The notes: generated from the letters alone by a model not told the origin. A stretch of DNA of 12,777 nucleotides from a virus (IMGVR_UViG_2579778842_000009), one strand, 5' to 3'. Positions 1-12,777 are shown, numbered from the stretch's first letter. Numbers and translations: made by a program.

Positions 1-238
1 TTTCACGTTCCAGCTCTTTCAGACGCTGACGTTCAGCGCTGGTGAGCCCACCATCACCGCCCCCGGTATCCCGCTCATGCTGGCGAACCCAGACACGCAG
101 AGTCTCCGGCGTACAGCCAATCTTTGGGGCAATGGAACAAATTGCCGCCCACTGTGAGTCATATTCATCCTGACTTTCCAGAACCATACGAATCGCCCGC
201 TGACGGACTTCGGGGGAAAAACGAGTATTTTTAGTCAT
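1..238 (-). CDS. IS3-family transposase OrfA (HTH DNA-binding subunit), N-terminal 79 codons; 3' part lies outside window
   Basis: Reverse-strand translation from ATG at 238: [79 protein letters not shown]. This is the typical IS3-family OrfA N-terminus, with a GAGG ribosome-binding site about 9 nt upstream. Confidence 0.8.
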
Positions 239-292
239 CCTGTTTACCTCTTTCTCAGGGAGTTTAGTCTCCAGGATTTCCGGGGCGGTTCA
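1..292 (-). mobile_element. IS3-family insertion sequence (IS629/IS1203/IS3411-like), left end only; continues beyond window start
   Basis: Minus strand from 292 reads TGAACCGCCCCGGAAATCCTGGAGACTAAACTCCCTGAGAAAGAGGTAAACAGG then ATG of orfA. The TGA-initiated terminus and the orfA leader match my recollection of the IS629/IS1203 left end. The boundary at 292/293 is inferred from where IS30-like coding sequence begins. Confidence 0.65.
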
Positions 293-640
293 GTCTCAGT
301 AAATCAGGCTCTTACCGACAAATTCCTGAGTTTACCGTCAGAACTCAGAAAATCACTGACATGGGACAGAGGAATGGAACTGGCCAGACATCTAGAATTT
401 ACTGTCAGCACCGGCGTTAAAGTTTACTTCTGCGATCCTCAGAGTCCTTGGCAGCGGGGAACAAATGAGAACACAAATGGGCTAATTCGGCAGTACTTTC
501 CTAAAAAGACATGTCTTGCCCAATATACTCAACATGAACTAGATCTGGTTGCTGCTCAGCTAAACAACAGACCGAGAAAGACACTGAAGTTCAAAACACC
601 GAAAGAGATAATTGAAAGGGGTGTTGCATTGACAGATTGA
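293..640 (+). pseudogene. IS30 transposase, C-terminal fragment (N-terminus missing due to IS3-family insertion)
   Basis: Frame is open from 293 with no start context. Translation VSVNQALTDKFLSLPSELRKSLTWDRGMELARHLEFTVSTGVKVYFCDPQSPWQRGTNENTNGLIRQYFPKKTCLAQYTQHELDLVAAQLNNRPRKTLKFKTPKEIIERGVALTD matches the IS30 transposase C-terminus as I recall it. Stop TGA at 638-640 lies inside the inverted repeat. Confidence 0.8.
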
Positions 641-1322
641 ATCTACAGCGGCTTTCTTTAATGATTGTTCGGCGGATATGATCGCTCCAGGTATCCCGGC
701 GATTATTGCTGCCACGGGTGAGGTAATATTCCGCCAGTTGCTCGTCATACTGCGCCAGTGCGCCTTTATCCAGCGGTTGATAGCTGTTTTCATGCACCAA
801 AATGGAGGCCGGTAAACGCGGCTTAAGATCCGGATTATCCGCAGGCCAGCCAAGGCACAGCCCAAACAGCGGCAGAACATGCTGCGGTAATTTAAGCAGT
901 TTCGTCACCGCTTCAATATTATTGCGCAGGCCGCCGATATATACCCCGCCCAATCCCAGCGATTCCGCTGCGATTAATGCATTCTGCGCCATCATTGCCG
1001 TATCAACGACACCGAGCAACAGTTGTTCCGCCAGGCCGAGCTGAGCATCCGGACAGATCTGTAAATGGCGGTTAAAGTCGGCACAGAACACCCAGAACTC
1101 CGCCGCTTGCGCTACGTGTTTTTGCCCGCCGGTCAGCGTCACCAGTTCTTCACGTAACGCTTTGTCGGTAATGCGAATAATGCTACTGCACTGCAAAAAA
1201 CTGGAACTGGACGTCGCACGGGCGCTGTTAATAATCGCCTCACGCTGCGCTTCGGAAATGGGTTCATCAGTGAAATGGCGAATGGAGCGATGGCCACAAA
1301 TAAGTTCAATGGTTGGCGTCAT
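591..1322 (-). CDS. nfsA: Oxygen-insensitive NADPH nitroreductase NfsA, 3'-truncated by IS30: native sequence to about codon 225 (648-1322), then 18 IS-derived codons to a stop at 591
   Basis: Translation MTPTIELICGHRSIRHFTDEPISEAQREAIINSARATSSSSFLQC...TWSDHIRRTIIKESR is E. coli NfsA. After KESR the native C-terminus (PFILDYLHKQGWATR as I recall it) is replaced by CRFNLSMQHPFQLSLSVF, read from the IS30 inverted repeat. Confidence 0.85.
   Translation of the reverse strand: MTPTIELICGHRSIRHFTDEPISEAQREAIINSARATSSSSFLQCSSIIRITDKALREELVTLTGGQKHVAQAAEFWVFCADFNRHLQICPDAQLGLAEQLLLGVVDTAMMAQNALIAAESLGLGGVYIGGLRNNIEAVTKLLKLPQHVLPLFGLCLGWPADNPDLKPRLPASILVHENSYQPLDKGALAQYDEQLAEYYLTRGSNNRRDTWSDHIRRTIIKESRCRFNLSMQHPFQLSLSVF
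622..647. repeat. IS30 right terminal inverted repeat
   Basis: Sequence GTGTTGCATTGACAGATTGAATCTACA on the + strand; its reverse complement begins TGTAGATTCAATCTGTCAATGCAAC. nfsA coding sequence resumes immediately at 648. Confidence 0.6.
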
Positions 1323-1593
1323 TATCTTTTTCTCTTTCTGAACGTGAATATTGCGGTGGACGGTTCATCAGCTGTGGGGCAAGACGTTTTGCCACCTGAA
1401 GAATAACCACCACCGCAGCGGGAAGCATGAGCAAAACACCGAGAAAAATCATCAGAATCTGCACTTCTGGCCGAGAAAATGGCTCAGGCAGCGACAGGGA
1501 GTCGCTTACCGACAGCAGCGCCACCGCCAGTAGCATCATTCCGATAAATTCCAGTATCAACACGCCTTTAGGCAATTTACCGATCGCGCGCAT
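1306..1593 (-). CDS. ybjC: Small inner-membrane protein YbjC (DUF1418), first gene of the ybjC-nfsA operon
   Basis: 95-aa ORF MRAIGKLPKGVLILEFIGMMLLAVALLSVSDSLSLPEPFSRPEVQILMIFLGVLLMLPAAVVVILQVAKRLAPQLMNRPPQYSRSEREKDNDANH with two hydrophobic helices. Its stop overlaps the nfsA start, as in E. coli. Confidence 0.85.
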   Translation of the reverse strand: MRAIGKLPKGVLILEFIGMMLLAVALLSVSDSLSLPEPFSRPEVQILMIFLGVLLMLPAAVVVILQVAKRLAPQLMNRPPQYSRSEREKDNDANH

Positions 1594-1752
1594 ACGCTTC
1601 CCTCTGCAAAGTGAGCCTTCAGTCTAAAACTTTTCACTGTATTGTGTTTAACAGTTATAGCTTTTAGCAATTAATGCAACAGGTTAAACCTACTTTCAGC
1701 GAATACATTTTAGCGTGATCATTACAGGCATAAATCTATGAGGAGAGAAATA
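1594..1752. promoter_or_regulatory. Divergent promoter region for ybjC-nfsA (minus) and grxA (plus)
   Basis: 159-bp AT-rich spacer between divergent starts. grxA is a known OxyR-regulated gene in E. coli; I did not map a specific OxyR site or the -10/-35 elements. Confidence 0.4.
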
Positions 1753-2010
1753 ATGCAAACCGTTATTTTTGGTCGTCCGGGTTGCCCTTACTGTGTGCGT
1801 GCAAAAGATCTGGCTGAGAAATTGAGCAATGAACACGATGATTTTCAGTATCACTATGTAGATATTCGTGCGGAAGGGATCACTAAAGAAGATCTACAAC
1901 AAAAGGCAGGTAAACCCGTAGAAACCGTGCCGCAGATTTTTGTCGATCAGCAACATATCGGCGGCTATACCGATTTTGCTGCATGGGTGAAAGAAAATCT
2001 GGACGCCTGA
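1753..2010 (+). CDS. grxA: Glutaredoxin 1
   Basis: MQTVIFGRPGCPYCVRAKDLAEKLSNEHDDFQYHYVDIRAEGITKEDLQQKAGKPVETVPQIFVDQQHIGGYTDFAAWVKENLDA with CPYC active site. GAGGAGAG ribosome-binding site lies 5 nt upstream of ATG 1753; the longer ORF from 1738 (MRREI...) is probably not the true start. Confidence 0.9.
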   Translation: MQTVIFGRPGCPYCVRAKDLAEKLSNEHDDFQYHYVDIRAEGITKEDLQQKAGKPVETVPQIFVDQQHIGGYTDFAAWVKENLDA

Positions 2011-2019
2011 TCGTCTGAC

Positions 2020-2052
2020 AAGCCCTCGCGTTGAGGGCTTTACTGATTTTTT
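2020..2052 (+). terminator. Rho-independent terminator after grxA (hairpin shared with the convergent ybjM 3' end)
   Basis: Stem AAGCCCTC (2020-2027), loop GCGTT, stem GAGGGCTT (2033-2040), followed by TACTGATTTTTTCTG. The T-run is present only on the + strand. Confidence 0.6.
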
Positions 2053-2417
2053 CTGTGCTGTGGTTTAAACAAACTACTGATAAATAAGAAACACAGTGCC
2101 CCCAGCGCACACCAGAACACCGCACTTAATAACCATGCCAGCTCTTGCCAGAATGAGCGCGTCGGTGAAAAAAACAGCCGCATAATGAGCATCGAACAGG
2201 GTGCCGCCAGCATTGCGCCAAACAGAGGTTTCAGGACTTCTCTACGCTGTGAAAAGAAGCTGGCGACTGCTCCAGGAAGAATGAAAAATAGCAAGCCGAT
2301 TTCAGGATGCCCGGCAGCCCGAAAAGCGCCTTTCATGTGCGTCGCCAGAAAAAGGCACACCACAATGAAGAGGACAAAACAGCAGATTGCCCCCGCCCAA
2401 CGTTGTTTATGTTTCAC
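2040..2417 (-). CDS. ybjM: Inner-membrane protein YbjM
   Basis: 125-aa hydrophobic ORF MKHKQRWAGAICCFVLFIVVCLFLATHMKGAFRAAG... matching E. coli YbjM, in the conserved position between grxA and ybjL. Confidence 0.85.
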   Translation of the reverse strand: MKHKQRWAGAICCFVLFIVVCLFLATHMKGAFRAAGHPEIGLLFFILPGAVASFFSQRREVLKPLFGAMLAAPCSMLIMRLFFSPTRSFWQELAWLLSAVFWCALGALCFLFISSLFKPQHRKNQ

Positions 2418-2686
2418 TCGTTCCTCCTGACACTGCGTCTATCGAACACATTTTTCGCCAGTGTGGCGTTCAGTAAGATAAAGCCGCTTCGCATTCCATG
2501 CTAATATAGGCCAACGCAATTCATATAGCCGTTGATACCTAATGTGATTACACTAGTAAAATATATTGTTACTTTACTATCGTTTAGGTGCGCTGAATGA
2601 ATCTGCGCCCTGAATTCTGGTAAAAAACATTATCGTAAATTACCATTTCTTTCAACAGCTTACTAGTAAACAAGAAGTTAGCCTCC

Positions 2687-4372
2687 GTGAATATAAACGT
2701 CGCCGAATTGTTAAATGGGAATTACATTCTGTTATTATTTGTGGTCCTCGCGCTTGGGCTATGTCTCGGAAAGTTACGACTTGGTTCGATCCAACTGGGT
2801 AATTCCATTGGCGTTTTAGTCGTATCGCTGTTATTAGGCCAACAACATTTCAGCATTAACACCGATGCGCTTAATCTTGGCTTTATGCTGTTTATTTTCT
2901 GTGTTGGGGTTGAAGCCGGACCGAACTTTTTTTCCATTTTTTTTCGCGATGGGAAAAATTACCTAATGTTAGCACTGGTGATGGTTGGCAGTGCGCTGGT
3001 GATCGCCTTAGGGTTAGGTAAGCTGTTTGGCTGGGATATTGGCCTGACGGCCGGTATGTTAGCAGGCTCTATGACGTCGACACCGGTTCTGGTCGGTGCT
3101 GGCGATACACTGCGTCATTCCGGCATGGAAAGCAGGCAGCTCTCACTGGCACTGGATAATCTGAGCCTCGGGTATGCCTTAACCTATTTAATCGGTCTGG
3201 TGAGTTTGATTGTTGGTGCGCGTTACTTGCCGAAATTGCAGCATCAGGACTTACAGACCAGCGCCCAGCAAATCGCCCGCGAACGTGGCCTGGACACTGA
3301 TGCCAACCGTAAGGTTTATTTACCGGTGATCCGCGCCTATCGCGTCGGCCCGGAGCTGGTGGCCTGGACCGACGGCAAAAATCTGCGTGAACTGGGTATT
3401 TATCGACAAACCGGCTGCTACATTGAACGTATTCGACGTAACGGGATTCTGGCAAATCCAGACGGTGATGCCGTGCTACAAATGGGCGATGAAATAGCGT
3501 TGGTAGGCTATCCCGACGCCCATGCCCGACTCGATCCCAGCTTCCGTAACGGTAAAGAAGTTTTCGATCGTGACCTTCTCGACATGCGTATCGTCACTGA
3601 AGAAGTGGTCGTTAAAAACCATAACGCTGTAGGTAAACGTCTCGCACAACTGAAGTTGACCGATCACGGTTGCTTCCTTAACCGCGTCATTCGTAGCCAG
3701 ATTGAGATGCCGATAGATGACAACGTCGTGCTTAACAAAGGTGACGTTTTACAAGTCAGCGGTGATGCCCGTCGCGTAAAAACCATCGCCGATCGCATCG
3801 GCTTTATCTCGATTCACAGCCAGGTCACTGACCTGCTGGCATTTTGCGCCTTCTTTGTTATTGGGCTGATGATCGGGATGATCACCTTCCAGTTCAGCAC
3901 ATTCAGTTTCGGCATGGGGAACGCTGCCGGGTTGTTATTCGCCGGAATTATGCTGGGCTTTATGCGTGCTAACCACCCGACCTTCGGTTACATTCCGCAG
4001 GGTGCATTAAGCATGGTGAAAGAGTTCGGCTTGATGGTGTTTATGGCAGGCGTTGGTCTGAGCGCCGGTAGCGGTATTAATAACGGCCTGGGCGCGATTG
4101 GCGGTCAGATGTTGATTGCCGGATTGATTGTCAGTCTGGTGCCCGTGGTTATCTGTTTCTTGTTCGGTGCTTATGTATTGCGAATGAACCGCGCGCTGTT
4201 GTTCGGCGCAATGATGGGCGCACGTACCTGCGCGCCGGCAATGGAGATCATCAGTGATACAGCTCGCAGTAACATCCCGGCGCTGGGCTATGCGGGCACC
4301 TATGCAATCGCCAACGTCCTGCTGACGCTGGCAGGGACAATCATCGTCATGGTATGGCCAGGATTAGGATAA
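2687..4372 (+). CDS. ybjL: Putative transport protein YbjL (AAE-family transporter with two central TrkA-C/RCK-C-like domains)
   Basis: 561-aa ORF with GTG start ([29 protein letters not shown]...), hydrophobic N- and C-terminal halves and a soluble middle, matching E. coli YbjL. Confidence 0.9.
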
Positions 4373-4484
4373 AACTGAAGTTGCCCTGAAAATGAAATTT
4401 TTTTGCACAACCGCAGAACTTTTCCGCAGGGCATCAGTCTTAATTAGTGCCACTGCTTTTCTTTGATGTCCCCATTTTGTGGAG

Positions 4485-4530
4485 CCCATCAACCCCGCCA
4501 TTTCGGTTCAAGGTTGATGGGTTTTTTGTT
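4485..4530 (+). terminator. Candidate rho-independent terminator downstream of ybjL, on the host side of the prophage junction
   Basis: Perfect 10-bp stem CCCATCAACC (4485-4494) and GGTTGATGGG (4512-4521), followed by TTTTTTGTT. The 17-nt loop is long but can form an inner CCG/CGG pair. Confidence 0.5.
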
Positions 4531-4607
4531 GCCTGAAATTTAAGATGTTTAAAATCATGATGTTAGAAGCACTGTTTTTTAACGATGGCGACAAAATGGC
4601 GGCAGCG

Positions 4608-4826
4608 TCAAAGAGAGAGCGCCACCTGTCCTGATTTCATTGGATGCGGCTGAACTGGATTCGACTCTTTTGGTGTTGCAATCGAACGAACAAAAGTTTC
4701 ATGGGTAACAAAAGTATGGCTGCAGTTAATGTTCTGGCACTGGTTATAACGCTCTTTGGTCAATGAAGATACCTGAAAACTGCTGCGAGTATGGGCGGCA
4801 CTTCCACACAGTGGGCAAATCATCAT
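4608..4826 (-). CDS. ogr: Ogr/Delta-family zinc-finger late-gene transcriptional activator
   Basis: MMICPLCGSAAHTRSSFQVSSLTKERYNQCQNINCSHTFVTHETFVRSIATPKESNPVQPHPMKSGQVALSL has the CxxC...CxxxxC zinc finger and resembles P2 Ogr (72 aa). GGGGAGA ribosome-binding site lies about 9 nt upstream of ATG 4826. The longest ORF extends to 4859 (MNLAKMGRTRK...) but that extension is probably untranslated. Confidence 0.8.
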   Translation of the reverse strand: MMICPLCGSAAHTRSSFQVSSLTKERYNQCQNINCSHTFVTHETFVRSIATPKESNPVQPHPMKSGQVALSL

Positions 4827-10581: not shown

Positions 10582-11754
10582 TTACGCGCTGACCTGGCTG
10601 GCGAAATTCACCAGGTACTGATCGGTGATGCGCTGACGCAACATCAGGTTTTCAAGTGGCGGCACTGGCGTGTAGTCGTAGTCGATGGTGAGTTTTCCGG
10701 CTTTCAGAGTGTCTTTGTCGTTCACCGACTCGTCCAGCCAGCAATCACCACCAATGAGATACCCCTGACTGACCAGGCTGCGCATTTTGGCGCGGATGCC
10801 CTCGATAATGTCGCGCGCCAGCGACGGGTTCAGCGGTTTGTCCACTGCCCACATGTGCGCTTCTGCCATTGTGTCCGTCAGCACCTGCGCCGTGCGGGTG
10901 TAGTTTTCGAAGGCAAAGAGCGGGTCATCACTCAGGCAGCGGGAACCCCAGAAGCGGAAACCGTCTTTACGCACAAGCGTGGTGACGTCGTTCTGGTTCA
11001 GCAGACCTGCATCGGTTGCCGGGTCCTGCAGATCCCAGAACACATCTGCAGAAATTCCGGTGACACCGTTCACGCCCACGTTGGACAGGCTTTTGTGCCA
11101 CCCAGTCTGCTCATCAATTTTGGCACGCAGACCAAGCGCACGGGCGGTGGCATATGCCGTTGCTTCGGCATTCAGCACCGTGTCCCAGCCAGTAAAGTCG
11201 GGCCAGATCAGCATTCCTTCGCGCTGGCTGAAGTTTTCACGGTAAGTGATCGCCTCCTGCACCGTCTTGCAGCCATACGCTGACAGGTAAGCAAACCCAC
11301 GCAGGCTTTGCGCCACACTCAGCAACTCAGTAGCAACGGCTTTGTTATCGTGACCTGGCACGCCGAGAATGCGCGGTTTAACGCCGAGCTGTGTCTGGGC
11401 AGATAACAGGGCTTTCATGCCTGTTTTTTTACCTTCAGCAGTCACTGCGCCGATGATATTGGTCGTGGTTTCTTCTTCCGTTTCACCCTGCGGCACACGC
11501 ACAACAACGGTCACGGGTTTTGCCTGGTCAGCGATGGCATCCAGCGAACGGGCCAGCGTGCCGGACTCACCCGCTTTACCGCTGGCAGTCAGCACATCAG
11601 TGATCAGCACGGGTTTATTAAGAGGAAACATTTTTGCATCGGCATCATCGCCCGTGCAGACCATACCCACGATGGCGGTGCTCACCGTGGTAATGGATCG
11701 GGTGCCTTCGTTGACTTCAACAACGCGCACCCCGTGGTGGTAATCCTGAGCCAT
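10582..11754 (-). CDS. FI: Contractile tail sheath protein (gpFI-like)
   Basis: 390-aa [57 protein letters not shown]...[24 protein letters not shown], closely resembling P2 FI. AGGAGG ribosome-binding site 9 nt upstream of the ATG. Confidence 0.9.
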
Positions 11755-11830
11755 AGTGGCGAACCTCCTGATTGGATTAGGCTTCGCCCTATGTTGAAGT
11801 GATTGTGCCTGACAAACAGCTAAGCGCAGT

Positions 11831-11848
11831 TGTACCGTTATTCATACA
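11831..11848 (-). promoter_or_regulatory. P2-type late promoter (PF-like) activator site: TGT-N12-ACA dyad for Ogr
   Basis: TGTACCGTTATTCATACA (TGT, 12 nt, ACA) centred about 85 bp upstream of the FI ATG. This fits an Ogr site at about -55 with a roughly 30-nt leader. Confidence 0.55.
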
Positions 11849-11896
11849 AAATGACGGTATTTGTCTGCTTGCAGGGATAATCAACATAATGCTGAT

Positions 11897-12463
11897 TCAG
11901 GGGGATTCATTGCTCTTATTTGCCGGAAATTTTCTATAAATTGTGGAAACACCCACATCAAAAATCAGTGCAATACGCTGTCTTGATTCTCCGGCCTCGA
12001 GTAAACGTCCAATCTGTGCCCACTGTTCGGTGGTCAACTTAGGACGGCGTCCACCTACTCTGCCTTTAGCACGAGCTGCAGCCAGCCCCGCCCTGGTACG
12101 TTCAACTATCAGTTCGCGTTCCATTTCAGCCAGGGCCCCCATGACATGAAAAAAGAAACGGCCCATTGGGGTGCTGGTATCAATACTGTCAGTCAGGCTT
12201 CGGAAATTCACGCCACACTGGCGCAACTCTTCTATCAGCGTAACAAGATGCCGCATACTGCGCCCCAACCTGTCCAGCTTCCAGACAACCAGCGTGTCTC
12301 CTGCCGATAGTGTCCTGAGCAGTTTTTTCAGCCCCGGTCTGTCGGACTTAGTGCCACTGATTTTATCCTCAAAAATCCGCTCACATCCCGCGCAGTTCAG
12401 CGCACTACGTTGCAAATCGGTGTTCTGGTCATTTGTTGACACGCGTACATAGCCAATAAGCAT
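11897..12463 (-). CDS. pin: Serine recombinase, DNA invertase of the Gin/Pin/Hin/Cin family
   Basis: MLIGYVRVSTNDQNTDLQRSALNCAGCERIFEDKISGTKSDRPGLKKLLRTLSAGDTLVVWKLDRLGRSMRHLVTLIEELRQCGVNFRSLTDSIDTSTPMGRFFFHVMGALAEMERE... is near-identical in motif content to Gin/Pin, with the catalytic Ser in YVRVST. AAGGAG ribosome-binding site is 6 nt upstream of ATG 12463; the ORF-track start at 12469 directly abuts the RBS and is unlikely. Confidence 0.85.
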   Translation of the reverse strand: MLIGYVRVSTNDQNTDLQRSALNCAGCERIFEDKISGTKSDRPGLKKLLRTLSAGDTLVVWKLDRLGRSMRHLVTLIEELRQCGVNFRSLTDSIDTSTPMGRFFFHVMGALAEMERELIVERTRAGLAAARAKGRVGGRRPKLTTEQWAQIGRLLEAGESRQRIALIFDVGVSTIYRKFPANKSNESP

Positions 12464-12518
12464 GATCATCTCCTTGAATAAAAATCGGGGATGATGCCAG
12501 TTAGTCGTAATCGCTGCA

Positions 12519-12544
12519 TTTTCTTAAACGTTGGTTTGGGAGAA
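12519..12544. other. gix/hix/pix-like 26-bp invertase crossover site (invertase-proximal boundary of an invertible segment)
   Basis: TTTTCTTAAACG TT GGTTTGGGAGAA compared with gixL TTCCTGTAAACC GA GGTTTTGGATAA and hixL TTCTTGAAAACC AA GGTTTTTGATAA (both from memory). The AAAC, 4 nt, GTTT core is conserved and the right half matches gix at 10 of 12 positions. It lies about 70 bp upstream of the invertase start, as gix does relative to gin. Confidence 0.6.
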
Positions 12545-12777
12545 GCGGCAAAACGGGATGTAGGGACAGGGGAAAATCAGATACCGGACATGGCCTCTTT
12601 TGCCAGTGGTGATGGATGGATGAAATTACCCAACGGGAAAATCCTGCAATATGGTCGTGGTGCGGTTACGCCGACATTATCGACGCAAACAATGAGAATT
12701 ACATTCAGCATCCCTTTTCCTAAAAAAGTGGACTGCGCCATGCTTACTCATTCTGGTGATGGTGGTGCGCCTTTAGG
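12531..12777 (+). CDS. Partial ORF: putative alternate (silent-orientation) tail-fibre C-terminal variable cassette, reading from the crossover site into the invertible segment; continues beyond window
   Basis: Frame open from 12479 to the window end: ...GLGEAAKRDVGTGENQIPDMASFASGDGWMKLPNGKILQYGRGAVTPTLSTQTMRITFSIPFPKKVDCAMLTHSGDGGAPL. The KLPNGxIxQxG ... FPxxFP motifs resemble C-terminal receptor-binding regions of Mu S/e14 Stf-type tail fibres. Internal ATGs at 12491, 12494 and 12590 exist, but the frame runs through the crossover site. Confidence 0.4.

Follow-up and report, generated by a model that had tools for sequence, protein, structure and literature searches.

Invertase-proximal end of a highly probable Gin/Pin-type invertible tail-fibre segment in a P2/186-like prophage of Escherichia coli UMNK88

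Results

The DNA described here very probably contains the invertase-proximal end of a Gin/Pin-type invertible tail-fibre segment, carried by a P2/186-like prophage of E. coli UMNK88. By the window we mean the whole 12,777-nucleotide stretch (IMGVR_UViG_2579778842_000009), whose last part, 11897-12777, holds the features listed below. An initial annotation, made from the sequence alone, had proposed that this interval contains the silent variable cassette of an invertible tail-fibre segment. Our analysis supports that reading and places the locus in the layout of the Mu G and e14 P segments. All parts of the system, an in-frame fusion, and both orientations among natural relatives were seen directly.

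11897..12463, minus strand: DNA invertase, 188 aa, Gin/Pin/Cin/Hin subclass of small serine recombinases (Pfam, PHROG, homology)
12379..12441, minus strand: putative Fis-dependent recombinational enhancer, within the 5' coding region of the invertase (by homology)
12464..12518, minus strand: invertase leader, presumed promoter region (Shine-Dalgarno AAGGAG 6 nt before ATG 12463)
12519..12544, no strand: proximal 26-bp crossover site, pix/gix-type, two 12-bp half-sites with a central TT at 12531-12532 (site comparisons)
12533..12777, running on to window-equivalent 12904, plus strand: silent alternative tail-fibre C-terminal end, 123 codons from GLGE (translation, Pfam, PHROG)

The segment lies within an apparently complete P2/186-like prophage. 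The UMNK88 chromosome (NC_017641.1, porcine ETEC) is 100% identical to window positions 11700-12777, as are three other pig ETEC assemblies. For the flanking sequence we used 19 kb of UMNK88 around the locus (L001), in which a window coordinate equals the L001 coordinate plus 2699. The P2-type prophage genes ogr, D, U, T, E/E', FII (tube), and FI (sheath) lie on the minus strand of the window, after the host gene ybjL. RefSeq places the remaining prophage between rcdA and ybjL, with an integrase, CI/CII-type immunity, a replication endonuclease, portal, terminase, scaffold, capsid, lysis genes, and the baseplate genes V, W, J, and I. Portal, terminase, and capsid are of the P2 family, and the late gene order of the P2 record (V W J I H G ... 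FI FII E E' T U D ogr) recurs in UMNK88. With this full P2-type gene set, the element therefore looks complete.

Several features of the prophage lie away from the fibre locus. The first third of the window (1-4607) is host DNA, whose last gene is ybjL (2687-4372, plus strand). The prophage end, marked by ogr (about 4608-4826, minus strand), begins some 235 bp past ybjL, which puts the attachment junction within 4373-4607; the other prophage end adjoins rcdA. At the old/tin hotspot of P2, between the replication gene and the portal gene (L008 12300-15937; UMNK88 923299-926936), the prophage carries two hypothetical genes and one gene with a GmrSD restriction endonuclease domain. This cargo is probably anti-phage.

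The gene upstream of FI encodes an intact invertase of the Gin/Pin type. The protein matches the Pfam families Resolvase (E 2.4e-52, residues 5-137) and HTH_7 (E 1.5e-15, residues 140-183) and falls in PHROG 125, "DNA invertase" (E 4.6e-99). It is 85.6% identical to PinE of e14, 79.6% to the enzyme of a P2-type prophage remnant in EPEC E2348/69, and 73.5% to Gin of Mu. Among solved structures, Gin (3uj3/4m6f) is the top match (E 4e-91), with the gamma-delta resolvase at E 7.5e-34; together with the PinE and Gin identities, this places the enzyme closer to invertases than to resolvases. The P2 record reads G - fun(Z) - FI, with the pF promoter also in the G-FI interval, and the invertase occupies the Z/fun position. 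Thus, both the assignment of a Gin/Pin-family serine invertase directly upstream of FI and the statement that P2 itself carries Z/fun at this place held up in our analysis. The open reading frame reported in the initial annotation is present when read from its upstream ATG (11897-12469, minus strand), but the in-frame ATG at 12463 (MLIGYVRVS) is the likelier start: it lies 6 nt after AAGGAG, aligns with the start of Gin, and is also the start chosen by RefSeq (L001 9764).

The invertase retains the residues expected of a catalytically competent, enhancer-responsive enzyme. The nucleophilic Ser9 is kept within YVRVS and aligns with position 9 of Gin. In Hin, R43, K47, R48, K51, Q151, R154, and L155 are specific to Fis/enhancer-dependent invertases (McLean et al., PMC3798978). 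By alignment to Gin, all of these are kept here as R42, K46, K47, R50, Q150, R153, and L154 (numbering is Hin minus 1), of which K46, K47, and R50 lie in the basic helix B and Q150, R153, and L154 in helix 1 of the DNA-binding domain.

Homology also points to a recombinational enhancer within the invertase gene. In the P1 record, the Cin enhancer is annotated at nucleotides 19-90 of the cin coding sequence, and the matching stretch is conserved here, in gin, in pinE, in the EPEC P2 invertase, and in Escherichia phage Cartapus. Two Fis-like 15-mers fall at coding nucleotides 23-37 and 71-85 with centres 48 bp apart, although the motif is loose and by our own estimate occurs at about 1/128 positions. 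Degenerate matches to the Fis motif occur at the same two positions in the homologues scanned. The centres of the two 15-mers lie about 97 and 145 bp from the crossover-site centre; the first of these distances is 97.5 bp here and 96.5 bp in Mu and e14. This homology, together with the loose motif, suggests that the enhancer would sit inside the invertase gene, as in these relatives.

The crossover site next to the invertase is identical or nearly identical to sites of related systems. The initial annotation had described a 26-bp site about 70 bp upstream of the invertase start with the AAAC-N4-GTTT core of gix and hix. We find this site at 12519-12544, its core at 12526-12537, with its centre 68 bp and its near edge 55 bp upstream of the invertase start. 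The bare AAAC-N4-GTTT pattern occurs twice in the window against 0.27 matches expected; it is weak on its own, and we therefore compared full 26-mers. On the plus strand the proximal site (L001 9820-9845) reads TTTTCTTAAACG TT GGTTTGGGAGAA and on the other strand TTCTCCCAAACC AA CGTTTAAGAAAA. Aligned with known sites, as had been proposed, it matches the pinE-proximal site of e14 at 25/26 positions and the site of the EPEC E2348/69 P2 prophage at 26/26. The e14 sites read TTCTCCCAAACC AA CGTTTATGAAAA and TTCTCCCAAACC AA GGTTTTCGAGAG, Mu gix reads TTCCTGTAAACC GA GGTTTTGGATAA, and P1 cixR reads TTCTCTTAAACC AA GGTATTGGATAA.

A second, inverted site lies to the right of the window. Its presence had been predicted, and a repeat finder located it as the partner in an inverted pair (L001 9820-9846 and 11710-11736, with 1863 nt between the arms). 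The site itself (L001 11711-11736) is inside a P2 H-type fibre gene, at the LGLGE codons (about 346-354 of H). The shared inverted repeat amounts to about 15 exact bp, or to 27 bp at 81%. In the same sense as the proximal site, the distal site reads TTCTCCCAAACC AA GGTATGCGAGAA; the core is thus TT on the plus strand at the proximal site and AA at the distal one. The inner half-site TTCTCCCAAACC is common to both sites here and to e14 pix. A regex scan and the repeat finder revealed no third crossover site, either shufflon-like or in the three-repeat style of EPEC P2, and the repeat finder found no long inverted repeats at the locus. The absence of a third site therefore indicates a simple two-state switch.

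It is unlikely that the locus is a frozen relic, that is, a set of homologous parts whose switch no longer works and whose gp53-like cassette is a permanent silent fossil. Such a relic could possibly have arisen through poor expression of the invertase or degeneration of the distal site. In its favour, the four assemblies with 100% identity over the proximal junction show one and the same orientation. A crude sigma-70 scan of both strands of 12464..12518 found no sigma-70-like invertase promoter, and sigma-70 and terminator scans of 11700-12777 found nothing above shuffled expectation; the invertase promoter was thus not located, and no promoter is suggested for the silent cassette. The distal outer half-site GGTATGCGAGAA is degenerate and departs from the AAACC/GGTTT core. 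However, its GGTAT outer half-site is also found in the functional P1 cixR, the same distal site occurs in relatives of opposite orientation and in Cartapus, and the EPEC module inverts despite a far more degenerate distal outer half-site (GGGAAAGAAGAA). A consensus assembly also gives only the majority orientation. The invertase reading frame is intact with all its diagnostic residues, and the silent cassette and its chaperone are likewise intact. Thus, intact reading frames throughout, together with an EPEC module that flips with a much poorer distal site, make a frozen relic unlikely.

A working switch, as we favour, places an alternative fibre end on the invertase side of the segment. The plus-strand frame through the proximal site has no stop from 12482 up to the window end, and the motifs KLPNGKILQYG and FSIPFP occur in it. 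The cassette begins at GLGE inside the proximal site and reads rightward. The initial annotation had assigned these motifs to a tail-fibre C-terminus and proposed an HMM search of the partial frame; this search identifies the Pfam tail-fibre C-terminal domain Gp53-like_C (E 1.4e-8 for the window part, E 2.8e-13 for the whole cassette), and the cassette also matches PHROG tail-fibre families. The frame does stop soon after the window, 127 nt beyond its end (L001 10205), but it does so with tail-fibre homology; none of the outcomes that the initial annotation had named as refuting its proposal was observed. The cassette had also been correctly described as having neither promoter nor fused N-terminus: the plus strand has no promoter-like site, and the constant part is found in H.

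The extended sequence completes the segment. After the silent end, on the same (plus) strand, comes a 147-aa tail-fibre assembly protein. The minus strand then encodes another assembly protein, of 200 aa, and a fibre protein of 509 aa (L001 11243-12772). The latter combines an N-terminal domain of P2 H type with a Collar domain close to the C-terminus. The two chaperones, 200 aa (minus) and 147 aa (plus), are both Caudo_TAP proteins, converge on each other, and provide one per variable end. The locus order is thus H - tfa - tfa' - Hv' - invertase - FI, with the constant part, alternate variable parts, chaperones, and invertase that had been expected all present. The domains of the two variable ends are unrelated: Collar in the active end and Gp53-like_C in the silent one.

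Smaller features were noted within the segment. The convergent chaperone genes overlap by 29 nt at their 3' ends (L001 10641-10669). They also contain an 18-nt imperfect inverted repeat (L001 10579-10596 and 10705-10722; window-equivalent 13278-13421 overall), which probably reflects a shared Tfa C-terminal motif (LDYLDA / LDYIDA). The cassettes are not of the Mu S/S' types: tblastn searches with them gave no similarity in Mu or in P2 15000-24000.

The silent cassette is extremely unlikely to be an independent small gene, expressed on its own and not only as a fusion. RefSeq does annotate a 136-aa "gp53-like domain-containing protein" CDS (L001 9795-10205) from the ATG at 12494, and the Mu and e14 records likewise have ORF calls that start just outside the proximal site. 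However, the first 13 codons of this CDS lie in the invertase leader, outside the invertible segment, and the plus strand lacks both a promoter-like site and a well-spaced Shine-Dalgarno. The product would also be missing the N-terminal and shaft part needed to join the baseplate, and relatives carry the same cassette fused in frame to the constant part of H (Hc). The 14-codon "start" is a spurious one, an artefact supplied by the invertase leader.

Inversion between the two sites creates a complete alternative fibre gene. Reversing L001 9833-11723 in silico gives an open, in-frame ORF of 473 aa that runs from the 350-aa constant part, via GLGE, to AAKRDVGTGENQIPDM...WWAVGE (Hc-GLGE-AAKRDVG...WWAVGE*). 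The in-frame fusion therefore means that the cassette in the window is exactly placed as an alternative fibre end. A 625-nt query of the flipped junction (invertase 5' end, site, and active cassette) mostly returned e14-like pinE/tfaE loci and was uninformative on this prophage type. We therefore turned to a 1601-nt query spanning the sheath gene, invertase, site, and flipped cassette, which had full-length matches in other E. coli genomes.

Natural relatives carry the opposite orientation. Strains OkiPb01716 (L002) and 23CRST024 (L003) share this set of genes, but their middle block runs the other way. Against the flipped form, each aligns as a single 7300-nt block, at 96.5% and 95.4% identity, respectively. 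Against the native form, both align as three blocks, with the central 1896 nt reversed and the block ends overlapping within the two sites. The fused H gene is intact in both, and the distal site sequence is the same. Thus, the in-silico fusion and the same fusion in these relatives show that the initial annotation was correct in reading the window cassette as OFF.

Both junction forms are common among E. coli. Across 5,426 complete genomes, counting places that cover at least 80% of each query, we find the proximal junction in the window form in 246 genomes and in the flipped form in 191, and the distal junction as Hc-Collar in 118 and as Hc-gp53-like in 47, where the partner cassette may vary between genomes. 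Because the flipped relatives are only 94-98% identical, we infer inversion as an evolutionary event and do not observe it within a clone.

The opposite orientation could in principle have arisen from RecA-dependent or illegitimate recombination, or from independent cassette acquisition, rather than from the invertase. Mosaicism is a feature of tail-fibre genes, the identity of ETEC1749 and rl0044 to the window locus falls from 100% at the proximal junction to 96.1% at the distal one, and the inverted block of the relatives (94.0%) is more diverged than its flanks. Yet the shared repeat (about 15 exact bp, or 27 bp at 81%) is too short to sustain homologous recombination efficiently, the breakpoints both fall exactly at the two invertase-type sites, and length is kept to the base across the 7300-nt block, so that we give such an origin only the slimmest probability.

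Two further observations concern fibre genes in related genomes. ETEC1749 (NZ_CP122712.1) and rl0044 (NZ_CP121356.1) match the window at 100% over the sheath gene, invertase, and proximal site, and at 96.1%, with the same spacing, across the constant/variable junction of H (L001 11373-12073). This suggests that part of the fibre gene was recently replaced by mosaic exchange in prophages that are identical elsewhere. In OkiPb01716 and 23CRST024 (L002 and L003 6652-8073), the records split the intact 473-aa fusion ORF into an "incomplete" N-terminal pseudogene and a distinct "gp53-like" CDS. RefSeq/PGAP annotation thus handles invertible fibre genes badly.

Discussion

Invertase-driven switching of the fibre gene would follow the canonical invertasome mechanism, as the conserved catalytic and Fis/enhancer residues and the conserved enhancer stretch together lead us to propose. 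The late operon encodes one constant N-terminal fibre part of 350 aa, of P2 H type. Beyond it lies a 1891-bp segment bounded by the two inverted 26-bp sites and carrying two facing C-terminal receptor-binding ends, each with its own chaperone. In this model, the invertase, encoded just outside the segment, would bind both sites as two dimers and presumably be activated by Fis on the enhancer in its 5' coding region. It would cut both strands at the central AA/TT dinucleotide, and rotation of the subunits by 180 degrees, followed by religation, would then turn the segment round. In the sequenced orientation, the fibre ends in the Collar cassette (the 509-aa H), with a TfaE-like chaperone, while the gp53-like cassette and its 147-aa chaperone face away from the late promoter and are silent. 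After inversion, a 473-aa fibre with the gp53-like end would be made. We infer from these features that the enzyme is catalytically active in this strain, that it depends on Fis, and that the two ends recognise different receptors; the unrelated domains of the ends are consistent with this last point.

Invertible fibre genes as a principle have been known since the Mu G, P1 C, and e14 P segments. The kind of system, its place in P2-like genomes, and even the site sequence have been documented before. In EPEC E2348/69, segments in two P2-type prophages occur in both orientations within clonal cultures, as determined by deep sequencing and PCR (Goldberg et al. 2014, PMC4272514); the ends reported for the simpler of these segments (NC_011601 2977580-2979467) fall on the same central dinucleotides that we place here. 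A DNA invertase is also often found in the Z/fun hotspot of P2-like phages, with inversion of adjacent genes (bioRxiv 10.1101/2024.10.15.618418). Given these P2-like cases, the UMNK88 locus therefore adds an example and not a concept.

One of the closest known systems is the P segment of e14 with its invertase PinE. The two share 85.6% invertase identity, a proximal site that differs at 1 of 26 positions, the TTCTCCCAAACC half-site, and the AA core. They also share the arrangement of a fibre constant part, two facing cassettes with chaperones, and an invertase outside the segment that reads away from it. TfaE is 93% identical to the active-cassette chaperone here, and the distance from the site to the putative enhancer agrees within 1 bp. 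However, e14 is a defective lambdoid remnant with fibre genes that are partly pseudogenes, while the UMNK88 element is apparently a complete P2-type prophage with a P2 H-type constant part. The active variable end here is 61% identical to StfE, and the silent gp53-like end has no detectable match in e14.

Among P2-type elements, the remnant in EPEC E2348/69 (NC_011601 2977580-2979467) has the same setting between the fibre genes and the sheath gene, and the same order of tail protein, tfa, tfa, gp53-like, recombinase, and sheath. Its proximal 26-bp site is identical, its invertase 79.6% identical, and its segment about 1.9 kb long. In contrast to the UMNK88 prophage, it is truncated at the distal site, beside an integrase fragment, and its cassettes have diverged (protein identities of 51-61% for the variable ends and 70-90% for the chaperones). 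Cartapus (Peduoviridae, Elveevirus) has an invertase gene that is 98% identical at the nucleotide level over the first 540 nt, is annotated as "Mu phage Gin invertase homolog", and adjoins the sheath gene in the same gene order. The constant part of its H is 97.4% identical and its distal site is the same, and its proximal site is that of e14. It differs in carrying another variable pair: identity to the silent end is 48-67% in the corresponding regions, and nothing there matches the active end. Other deposited P2-like phages also have an invertase next to the sheath gene.

The Mu G/Gin and P1 C/Cin systems share the Sc-Sv-U-U'-S'v logic and the make-up of the 26-bp sites, in which 12-bp half-sites flank a 2-bp core. 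The putative enhancer here also corresponds in position to theirs, in the 5' part of the invertase gene. Gin is 73.5% identical to the invertase here, and cixR shares the GGTAT outer half-site. Unlike the UMNK88 prophage, a member of the Peduoviridae, both belong to other phage families, and their segments are larger (3 kb and 4.2 kb). Mu also differs in its GA rather than AA core and in having no detectable fibre-cassette similarity. The P1 invertase gene is oriented toward the segment, with cixL overlapping its 3' end.

The genomes that hold this prophage also contain further Pin-type invertases and e14-like invertible segments with near-identical crossover sites. In UMNK88, three places match the 11700-12777 window query, and the pinE locus of ETEC4085 matches the 625-nt flipped-junction query at 96.2%. 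Trans-inversion has reportedly been described for Fin/Hin and PinQ/e14, and the further invertases and near-identical sites thus make trans-inversion between elements plausible. The e14 P segment is reported to be inverted by a Pin-family invertase encoded elsewhere in the genome, which yields a chimeric fibre that blocks T2 adsorption (2025, PMC12529663). By analogy, the UMNK88 segment might be flipped in trans by other invertases of the cell, with the product of one orientation protecting the lysogen; we consider this combined scenario very unlikely. The fibre gene belongs to the Ogr-dependent late operon, which argues against its expression in a lysogen.

The inversion locus described here is relevant both to the annotation of P2-like phages and to the prediction of their host range. 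In annotation pipelines the silent cassette becomes a gene of its own, and the fused fibre gene of flipped genomes is broken up. If the switch is active, a single prophage would release two kinds of virion with different receptor-binding tips, a form of host-range bet-hedging.
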